Positions 1-31,624 of a stretch of 31,624 nt of DNA are shown piece by piece; position 1 is the first letter of the stretch, and each line of letters begins with the position of its first letter. Both the position numbers and the translations under genes were made by a program. The DNA comes from Escherichia coli (GTDB lineage: Bacteria; Pseudomonadota; Gammaproteobacteria; Enterobacterales; Enterobacteriaceae): the NCBI RefSeq assembly GCF_003334765.1, contig NZ_QOWT01000039.1, one strand, 5' to 3'. The notes under the pieces were generated by a model, which saw only the letters and a program-made list of their open reading frames with translations, had not been told where the DNA came from and did no database searches.

Positions 1-49
1 ATGACTCATGATGAACCCTGTTCCATGGCTCCAGATGACAAACATGATC

Positions 50-1000
50 TCATATCAGGGACTTGTTCGCACCTTCCCTAAATCTATCGCCTGTATGATC
101 CCCAAGGAAGATACAAGGGGTTATCGCATCGTCCTTTAAAAAAACATGTTGATGCAACTCATTCAAGATCATGTCTCTCGTATTTAATAAATCGTAGAGC
201 ACTTTATTATTTTTATGTTTGTATGCAGATGAAGCCATCTCTTCGTGTTTTAATAATTCACATAATAAACTCCAACCCTTTTCCCTGATGCCTATATGCC
301 CTGAAACGAGCAATGCATAAAGTACAGCGCCTACTCTTCCATCTGTATCGCCAAAATAAGCCGTGTTGGCATTTTGTGGGTTAATCACACCACACTGTTT
401 ATAGAAGTCTATTTTTGAAAACACAGATTTAACATAGCTATCAAACTTTTCCTTAGTAAACGTCTCTTTAGAGACATCCCAACGCCAGTCAGGTTTGAAA
501 TTACCACTAAGAAGAGTAAAGAAATTTCTCGCTATGATAGAAAGCCCATCAACTTTATAAATTATATCTGATTTATCTCCAGAGGAATTAATAAAATAAT
601 AACCGCCCTTACACTCAACAGTAACGGTAATGGGAGACGATAATTTTAACACATGGTTATTGTCTGGTATAATTGTAAAGATAAACGTATCAGTAGTATT
701 GTCGGCGAATCTATTATATTCTTGAATATCTATAGAAGGTTCACTATTATAAAACCATACTTTCTCCATCTGGTGACTACGATCATTTACCTTCCAGTGA
801 CCATGTTGCAGGAAATAGATGATATGCAGGCCAAAATCGTTATCTATTTGCGAATCATTATCCAGTTTATCAAATTCAACTATCTTTGCACGATGTGTTT
901 TATCAACCTTGCCATGGTGTTGATGACTGTTAACTTTATCTGAATGCTTATCTTGATGGCTTGAAGAGATGTTTCTAATCTGATTGTCAATTGCTTTCAT
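50..1000 (-). CDS. yhiL: Uncharacterised AT-rich protein, YhiL/YhiJ-like (DUF4049-type), possibly a truncated or pseudogene fragment
   Basis: ORF-track frame 50..1036. Codon at 1034-1036 is TTG without an SD; the ATG at 998-1000 has AGGT 5 nt upstream, so start set to 1000. Divergent from yhiM as in the E. coli gene order. Ends at TGA 50-52 with the same frame still open to the window edge. Family assignment is from memory, not a search. Confidence 0.55.
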   Translation of the reverse strand: MKAIDNQIRNISSSHQDKHSDKVNSHQHHGKVDKTHRAKIVEFDKLDNDSQIDNDFGLHIIYFLQHGHWKVNDRSHQMEKVWFYNSEPSIDIQEYNRFADNTTDTFIFTIIPDNNHVLKLSSPITVTVECKGGYYFINSSGDKSDIIYKVDGLSIIARNFFTLLSGNFKPDWRWDVSKETFTKEKFDSYVKSVFSKIDFYKQCGVINPQNANTAYFGDTDGRVGAVLYALLVSGHIGIREKGWSLLCELLKHEEMASSAYKHKNNKVLYDLLNTRDMILNELHQHVFLKDDAITPCIFLGDHTGDRFREGANKSLI

Positions 1001-17832: not shown

Positions 17833-19056
17833 ATGTCAATTGACTTTACCCCAGGTATAATAAATACATATCACGGCGATATTTATAACTGCACAACAAA
17901 TACCGATAATGCTAAAACGCCAGACACACCGAAGTGGCCTTGCGATAATTGGGAAGAACAACAACCCATTAATTCCACATTCTCTGGAGAAGGATATATC
18001 TCTGATCAATATGATTTAGCGCAACACCAACTTCAACAAATTAATGCGTGCCACACGAACACTACATATACAAATGCAGACTACTCAAAAGTTGTGGCTC
18101 AACTTGTAAGTCTTATTACTAACATTGAAACGATAAGTTCGACACAACTTACGCAACAGACACAATCAATACTTAATCAGATTAATAACATTAGATATGA
18201 AAAAAACAAAAGTGCTGAATGTCGAATCATTGTTATCGCTAATCCTAAACCCGACAAGGCAATCATAACTAAAATTAGCGTAGAAGAGGGAATACCCATA
18301 ACATTCAGTGTCCAAACCATGTTTTCAGATACTAATTTTATTGCTGAACAACGAGCTGACTTACCAACTAATATAAAAGATATTCAAAGCCTGTATCAAA
18401 AAATGACGAAGTTATATATTGAGCACAGTGAAAATAAAAACAGGATGAAAGTCTTTGCCGGAACCAACTTTATTGATTTCAATATGACAGGACAGAACCT
18501 GTCCGGGTTCGTTCTAACCTTGTCAAGGTTTTATTTCGAAGATCTACTTAATATAAATTTCACTGACGCAAATTTAGGTGACACTATTTTTTTACATAAA
18601 GAACACCCTACCCCCAAATTATATAAAGATGGACAATATCTTGACAAACAAATCGAAGGTTTATTTTCAACATTATTAACCATTAATGACAACCTTTTAC
18701 GAGCAAAAGCGGAAATTGCTTCGACAATAATTAAATTTTTAGAGGCCAGGATAACCAATCTTTCATACAATGACATATTAAAATATCAGCAAGAATTCCA
18801 AAAACAATGTTATAAGCAAGTTAAAGCCTTTACGACACTCTCCCGATACAATAAAATTCAAACATGGGCAGAAATGTCTGAATATCAATTCGAAGTATTT
18901 CAATACGAGACGCTTAACCCAAAAAAAATGTCACACACGCCTTATTTAAAGAGGCCACTGCCTAATGAAAAAGATATAAATTATGGGGTGGAAATAGAAA
19001 TACCATCTGGTAAAAGAATTCGCTTATCAAATCATTACCAGAATATAATACCATAA
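17833..19056 (+). CDS. yhiS: Uncharacterised AT-rich protein YhiS, uninterrupted 407 aa, with a pentapeptide-repeat-like central segment
   Basis: ORF 17833..19056 with AAGGAA SD. Lies between arsC and slp as yhiS does in E. coli. Markedly AT-rich, N/Q/T-rich protein. No IS sequence interrupts it here. Confidence 0.8.
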
Positions 19057-31522: not shown

Positions 31523-31624
31523 TCAGGTGTGTTTAAAGCTGTTCTGCTGGGCAATACCCTGCAGTTTCGGGTGATCGCTGAGATATTTCAGGGAGGCTTT
31601 GTAGTCTTCCAGCAACAGTTCAGC
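31523..31624 (-). CDS. gadA: Glutamate decarboxylase GadA, C-terminal 33 codons only (gene continues past the window end)
   Basis: Reverse-strand frame ends ...[14 protein letters not shown]-stop at 31523-31525 and is open to the window edge. Position after gadX matches E. coli order. Identity is from memory of the GadA/GadB C-terminus; gadA versus gadB is decided by context. Confidence 0.75.

Follow-up and report, generated by a model that had tools for sequence, protein, structure and literature searches.

Truncation of Escherichia coli yhiL at a Junction with the Left End of IS5

Introduction

The insertion sequence (IS) IS5 is 1195 bp long with 16 bp inverted repeats (PMC11677980), and its target is the tetranucleotide pyrimidine-T-A-purine (Py-T-A-Pu), for which CTAA and TTAG are both listed (PMC5493358) and CTAA is also given in PMC11677980. 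In the nmpC::IS5 allele of Escherichia coli K-12, host-gene transcripts from the PnmpC promoter run into the element and drive its transposase gene, ins5A (PMC11677980). IS5 can also remove DNA: an IS5-mediated 20,819 bp [yhiJ]-yhiS deletion was found in a ciprofloxacin-evolved K-12 line (PMC11633386), which shows that targets in yhiJ are within reach of an IS5 at yhiS and that the whole interval covered by the DNA analysed here can be lost in this way. That DNA is a 31,624 nt stretch of E. coli sequence, contig NZ_QOWT01000039.1 of assembly GCF_003334765.1 (the whole of it is called “the window” below), at the left end of which the yhiL gene, on the minus strand, is cut short where it meets an IS5 end. 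The locus is like nmpC::IS5 of K-12 in that IS5 occupies a CTAA within a protein-coding gene, with ins5A co-oriented with the interrupted gene, and it differs from nmpC::IS5 in the host gene and the site.

An earlier note on this DNA had described the yhiL-like open reading frame (ORF), its TGA stop and the open frame that follows, and had suggested that the gene is interrupted by a nonsense mutation or is the remainder of a longer ancestral gene. We conclude instead, with a probability of about 0.96, that an IS5 inserted at a CTAA target, rather than a nonsense mutation, truncates yhiL in the window.

Results

When bases 1–1300 of the window were compared by megablast with 5,426 complete E. 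coli genomes, the query split at base 78. The portion from 78 to 1300 matches the yhiL–yhiM locus in 4,157 genomes, with 100% identity in K-12, B and other strains, and the portion 1–77/81 matches loci annotated as “IS5-like element IS5 family transposase”; the whole query matched in thousands of places, the bulk of them scattered copies of the IS5 end. Window bases 1–81 are 100% identical to annotated IS5 copies, for example that in ETEC1739. A three-way alignment of the window with W3110 and Ec1120 breaks exactly at the CTAA at 78–81, and base 78, 26 nt before the TGA, is the exact limit of homology to uninterrupted yhiL. This CTAA (TTAG on the coding strand) is the IS5 target tetranucleotide and lies in yhiL codons 307/308 (TTT AGT); the intact allele has a single CTAA at this place (locus L003, 4463–4466), the annotated IS5 copy in locus L005 has TTAG on either side, and the CTAA at 78–81 is expected to be the visible copy of the 4 bp target duplication.

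Bases 1–77 (minus strand) are the left (IRL) end of IS5, comprising the terminal repeat, the 5′-untranslated region and the first three codons of ins5A, where the element runs off the window edge. The 16 bp terminal inverted repeat, GGAAGGTGCGAACAAG when read inward, is matched exactly at 62–77 (minus strand); the 17-mer GGAAGGTGCGAACAAGT, which is GGAAGGTGCGAACAAG plus a T, has its one exact match in the window at 77–61 on the minus strand, and the same terminal repeat sequence closes the annotated IS5 in L005. The three ins5A codons, ATG AGT CAT (MSH), occupy 1–9 on the minus strand, co-oriented with yhiL in a different frame; in L005 the first base of the annotated IS5 transposase coding sequence (CDS), at locus position 1509, is the counterpart of window base 9. 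The terminal repeat, the internal identity including the ins5A start, and the Py-T-A-Pu target together place the element in the IS5 family.

The ORF itself runs on the minus strand from the ATG at 1000–998 to the TGA at 52–50, and its frame is then free of stops to base 2, exactly as the earlier note had it in both coordinates and peptide; the minus-strand translation of 1036–1 ends in GDHTGDRFREGANKSLI, the stop and DHVCHLEPWNRVHHES. The last nine codons before the stop, R-EGANKSLI (53–79, minus strand), form a foreign C-terminal tail whose R codon (79–77) spans the junction and whose other eight codons are encoded by IS5, and the TGA (50–52) is likewise IS5 sequence, 26–28 nt inside the element. 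Frame 1 of the IS5 end translates as EGANKSLI followed by a stop. The peptide DHVCHLEPWNRVHHES is thus the IS5 5′-untranslated region read as protein, unrelated to any ancestral YhiL C-terminus. Each of the three frames that read inward from the IS5 left end (10–77, minus strand) contains a TGA, at codons 7, 9 and 24, the last of which overlaps the ins5A ATG, so that any host ORF entering here stops before the transposase is reached. A translational fusion of YhiL residues 1–307 to the transposase was considered and rejected, since the two frames differ and the TGAs stand in three frames before or at the ins5A ATG. A C-terminal EGANK in a truncated ORF can serve as a quick sign of read-in to an IS5-family terminal repeat. 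We also observed an E. coli YhiJ fragment of 152 aa (P0161, WP_249975168.1) that ends ...GENFL-REGANKQVISSQ..., a tail that arises where the paralogue, at another of its sites, reads into the right-end repeat of an IS5-family element.

An intact, ancestral-type allele is present in strain H3 (NZ_CP028732), which is 100% identical to the window over window positions 78–25000 and carries a 1608 nt gene, annotated “YhiJ/YhiL family protein” (535 aa), between yhiJ and yhiM. Native yhiL codons 1–307 occupy 80–1000 on the minus strand of the window and are 100% identical to yhiL of H3 and K-12. The window product is residues 1–307 of H3 YhiL (...GDRF) followed by REGANKSLI and the stop, 316 aa in all; H3 YhiL runs on past the divergence as STIFGDKYILTLL... 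(STIFGDKY...) for 228 more residues, and the suspicion that the window's stop is not a natural C-terminus was thus correct. Intact YhiL has the Pfam domains DUF6860 at residues 40–164 (1.4e-68) and DUF4049 at 209–532 (1.6e-197), and the truncated product has precomputed matches to PF21661 and PF13258. The remnant, which ends just past the motif GDHTGDRF, keeps all of DUF6860 and ~100 residues at the start of DUF4049; the cut falls near position 100 of the 333 in the DUF4049 model, with loss of ~70% of the domain. These Pfam domains and the position between yhiJ and yhiM make the gene a member of the YhiJ/YhiL family, as had been proposed from the letters of the window, and the full-length architecture of the family (~530–580 aa) is missing from the window product. 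Intact homologues measure 529–583 aa. Among the matches listed, the relatives with near-full coverage are 512–583 aa long and none of them ends at the window's stop position. Scans of YhiL, truncated YhiL and YhiJ against NCBIfam, PADLOC and PHROGs found no family.

The open frame beyond the TGA is unremarkable because 39% of the window's stop codons, any frame counted, are followed by at least 16 stop-free codons; the 16-codon open stretch past 52–50 is not beyond chance. Public contigs allow the locus to be followed a short way to the left. The exact 316-aa product is encoded on at least five of them (ENA ERZ19693164, NCBI GCA_965137835.1 and two Logan runs among them), and all stop 0–108 nt past the gene, inside IS5. 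The longest, L010, extends 59 nt beyond the window edge, all of it IS5 (136 nt of IS5 in total), and in it the yhiL frame meets a second TGA 23 codons after the first and 7 codons past the window edge; the frame closes likewise with the reference IS5. The longer ancestral frame that had been envisaged does not exist in this extension, and closure within a few codons was the outcome that the earlier note itself had named as contrary to its reading. At the other end, the last bases of the window (31523–31624) reach ~100 nt into the 3′ end of gadA, a gene that has a near-identical second copy, gadB, and public contigs of the same allele are 31.8–31.9 kb long. Because short-read assemblies break at multicopy IS elements, the contigs end just inside IS5; the window is almost certainly a short-read contig broken in multicopy IS5 at the left, and it is probably bounded by repeats at both ends, its edges having no biological meaning.

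RefSeq annotations of identical alleles start yhiL at the ATG at 1000–998 (MKAIDNQ...). An ORF listing of the window places the start at a TTG at 1036 instead (328 aa), and the 12 extra N-terminal codons (1001–1036) are probably not translated. The gene is AT-rich, as noted before, with a G+C content of 35.2% for 78–1000 versus 47.2% for the whole window and 54–55% for yhiN and pitA. The divergent yhiL–yhiM intergenic region (1001–1382) is also AT-rich (30.7% G+C for 1001–1283), shows no change from intact alleles, with 100% identity to strain H3, and presumably holds the yhiL promoter region; yhiM in RefSeq genomes is a 1053 nt (350 aa) CDS that starts ~383 nt from the yhiL start. An Rfam scan of 1–1400 gave no match, a promoter scan gave a score not above those of shuffled sequences, a terminator scan found none, and RNA folding of the junction region indicated a stability not above shuffles (z = +0.9).

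The domain that is cut bears on what the remnant could still do. YhiL carries the motifs GDTDG, GDHTGDRF, GNHE, SHHG and GHHG, which most of the aligned full-length relatives share; the reference motifs of PPP phosphatases are GDxHG, GDxxDR and GNH(E/D) followed by later His motifs, so that GDTDG has Asp where PPPs have His. The YhiJ/YhiL family is small, with 50 matches at E ≤ 1e-3 among 1.84 billion representative sequences, most of them fragments and all the named ones from Escherichia or Shigella; a second search for YhiL relatives, made with a profile, brought back the same set of close E. coli proteins and nothing new. One distant relative (P0179) matches both DUF4049 and Pfam Metallophos (9.8e-6), and YhiL itself has no significant match to Pfam Metallophos. 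Searched against PDB sequences, the family profile had weak best matches, all of them to Mre11/SbcD and aligned on the DUF4049 motifs; the same search with YhiL alone gave noise only, and no signal emerged when the family was compared with lambda phosphatase by hhalign. A structural model built from a 7-sequence alignment, in which one of five models was confident, gave DUF4049 a predicted PPP-type beta-sandwich, and an AlphaFold2 model of full-length YhiL that drew on a 4-sequence alignment was too poor to use (predicted local distance difference test score 38.6). A WipA/WipB-like PPP phosphatase fold for DUF4049 is a reasonable but unproven assignment on these models and motifs. IS5 sits directly after motif II of YhiL, and if YhiL is a metallophosphatase, the remnant would have lost GNHE together with every metal or catalytic residue that follows. 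No papers came up in a literature search for DUF4049/PF13258, and those found for yhiL and yhiJ mention the genes in passing.

Discussion

The events that best account for the window can be outlined as follows. IS5 transposed into the CTAA/TTAG at codons 307/308 of a formerly 535-codon yhiL, its left end (IRL) and its transposase gene being co-oriented with yhiL; translation of yhiL now crosses the junction, reads REGANKSLI and ends at the TGA of the IS5 left end, and the outcome is a 316-aa remnant without the last 228 YhiL residues. The element is presumably a complete 1195 bp IS5, the other half of yhiL would lie beyond it, and the remnant is likely to be non-functional.

What stands to the left of the visible IS5 end is less firmly settled than the junction itself, and several observations limit how far the allele can be taken for a simple insertion. 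The view of the element is confined to a single junction and 77 nt, or 136 nt in L010. In the RefSeq complete E. coli genomes IS5 proper is found at this junction in none, the only element there being ISKpn26 at 94% identity. Two of the ISKpn26 genomes have yhiJ, not yhiL, on the far side, with ~1.85–1.9 kb deleted, and in view of these ISKpn26-linked deletions into yhiJ a simple insertion cannot be assumed for the window allele. IS5 could therefore mark the boundary of a rearrangement (an adjacent deletion, an inversion or IS5–IS5 recombination) in which the C-terminal half of yhiL, and possibly yhiJ or more, was lost or moved elsewhere. The joining of ISKpn26 at the same CTAA to yhiJ in F1267 and Ec1120 and the experimentally evolved 20.8 kb [yhiJ]-yhiS deletion of K-12 (PMC11633386) are both in keeping with this, and the window, which ends short of the far side, offers nothing against it, but strain S115 has a plain insertion with target duplication at the same site and IS5 transposition most often ends in simple insertion, and we regard a rearrangement as unlikely, if by no means far-fetched. 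It would alter only what lies to the left, not why the ORF ends at the TGA at 52–50. A simple insertion predicts a far junction of CACCAAAAATAGTACTAA joined to GGAAGGTGCGAATAAGCGGGG, that is, the C-terminal half of yhiL, CTAA and the IS5 right end.

The other explanations would change the reason for the stop, and each is far less probable. Mutation of a sense codon to TGA in a longer YhiJ/YhiL-type gene, with the ancestral frame running on, was a natural thought given the 16 open codons after the TGA and the much greater length of full-length relatives. However, homology to yhiL ends at base 78, 26 nt ahead of the TGA, and everything from 1 to 77 is 100% IS5; intact YhiL reads STIFGDKY... where the window reads REGANKSLI, stop, DHVCHLEP; and an equal open run follows 39% of the window's stops, in this case closing 7 codons past the edge. 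The earlier description of yhiL as a pseudogene therefore stands, and its attribution to a nonsense mutation falls with the loss of yhiL colinearity at base 78, the stop being part of IS5; we see next to no chance that the attribution is right. A natural short paralogue, a protein consisting of the YhiJ N-terminal domain only, is hardly more credible: the Prokaryotic Genome Annotation Pipeline (PGAP) does call the equivalent Ec1120 fragment a “YhiJ N-terminal domain-containing protein”, but it flags that entry as an incomplete pseudogene, the window fragment matches, at 100% DNA identity, the opening 921 nt of the 1608 nt intact gene, and its end cuts through Pfam DUF4049 (~100 of 333) in a family whose near-full-coverage relatives were listed at 512–583 aa. 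Finally, an IS5 end might have been misjoined to yhiL by repeat collapse during assembly of a strain whose yhiL is uninterrupted, and the window does resemble a repeat-bounded short-read contig, with IS5 at the left and gadA at the right. Yet the join is precise to the base, the last base of the inverted repeat abutting a canonical CTAA, and such a signature of transposition is not expected from a chimera; the identical junction and 316-aa product were, moreover, assembled independently in the at least five ENA, NCBI and Logan contigs. An artefact is very improbable on this evidence. Insertion of IS5 at CTAA remains, by a wide measure, our explanation for the end of the ORF.

The site itself may be of some interest. 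Codons for GDRFS hold TTAG in both paralogues (yhiL GAT AGA TTT AGT, yhiJ GAT CGA TTT AGC); the yhiL site has been used by IS5 and, in both orientations, by ISKpn26, and ISKpn26 abuts the paralogous yhiJ site. These coincidences, in a gene (yhiL) with 29 YTAR sites, hint that the TTAG in the GDRFS codons is a recurrent hot spot for IS5-family elements, a hint to be read with the ascertainment bias in mind, since the search covered this one junction. The routes by which yhiL or yhiJ has been lost differ, being a frameshift in K-12, IS5 in the window and ISKpn26 elsewhere. As to expression, ins5A and yhiL point the same way, and transcripts from the yhiL promoter could, by this arrangement, enter ins5A; AT-rich yhiL and its upstream region may, on the other hand, be silenced. 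A broader proposal would combine a TTAG hot spot, repeated loss of Escherichia-restricted WipA/WipB-like PPP phosphatases, and a yhiL::IS5 donor made active by the host promoter. We put it forward tentatively and think it doubtful as a whole; were it true, co-oriented yhiL::IS5 would be an unusually active IS5 donor, like nmpC::IS5 in K-12.

In practical terms the case matters little: a non-essential, AT-rich accessory gene has been inactivated by insertion in textbook fashion, and equivalent alleles already carry an incomplete-pseudogene flag from annotation pipelines. The 316-aa ORF and the frame beyond it should not be taken as a gene variant, and when a window begins a few dozen bases into an IS, that edge is an artefact of a contig break in short-read assembly. 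The DUF4049 fold assignment is a mildly useful by-product, which would give two E. coli y-genes a testable function.

Three known sets of alleles in the region can be set beside that of the window. In K-12 (annotated in W3110) yhiS::IS5 is, like the yhiL case, an IS5 pseudogene in an AT-rich neighbourhood gene, ~17 kb away; in the window yhiS is uninterrupted (a 407-aa ORF at 17833–19056) and yhiL carries IS5, the reverse of the K-12 arrangement. The IS5 load of this neighbourhood varies by lineage, with yhiL::IS5 in the window and yhiS::IS5 in K-12. Strain K-12 has also lost yhiL, in a gene whose N-terminal 921 nt are identical to the window, but by a different lesion: in W3110 (L001, 3317–4923) a run of eight A residues has become seven, a 1 nt deletion at codon 397, downstream of the IS5 site. 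Compared with the intact allele of H3, W3110 yhiL also has a single substitution, at codon 534. The K-12 lesion is independent of the IS5 one and involves no mobile element.

A further likeness is with the yhiL::ISKpn26 alleles of the RefSeq genomes S115, EC2001, JB2, F1267, OY754389 and Ec1120, in which an IS5-family element occupies the identical yhiL CTAA and the gene remnants are annotated by PGAP as incomplete DUF4049/YhiJ N-terminal pseudogenes. ISKpn26 is a different IS species, its end being ~94% identical to that of the window's element over the junction query. In S115 its orientation is opposite to that of the window's IS5 and CTAA is present on both flanks; in F1267 the element is joined on its far side to the paralogous CTAA of yhiJ (CGA TTT AGC), and in Ec1120 to another yhiJ CTAA, ~1.85–1.9 kb being deleted in each of these two. 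The CTAA pairs that flank ISKpn26 lie at 1818–1821 and 3017–3020 in L006, 1855–1858 and 3055–3058 in L007, and 2878–2881 and 4078–4081 in L002. Set against these alleles and those of K-12, yhiL::IS5 of the window is a standard insertion pseudogene of a kind that is already known.
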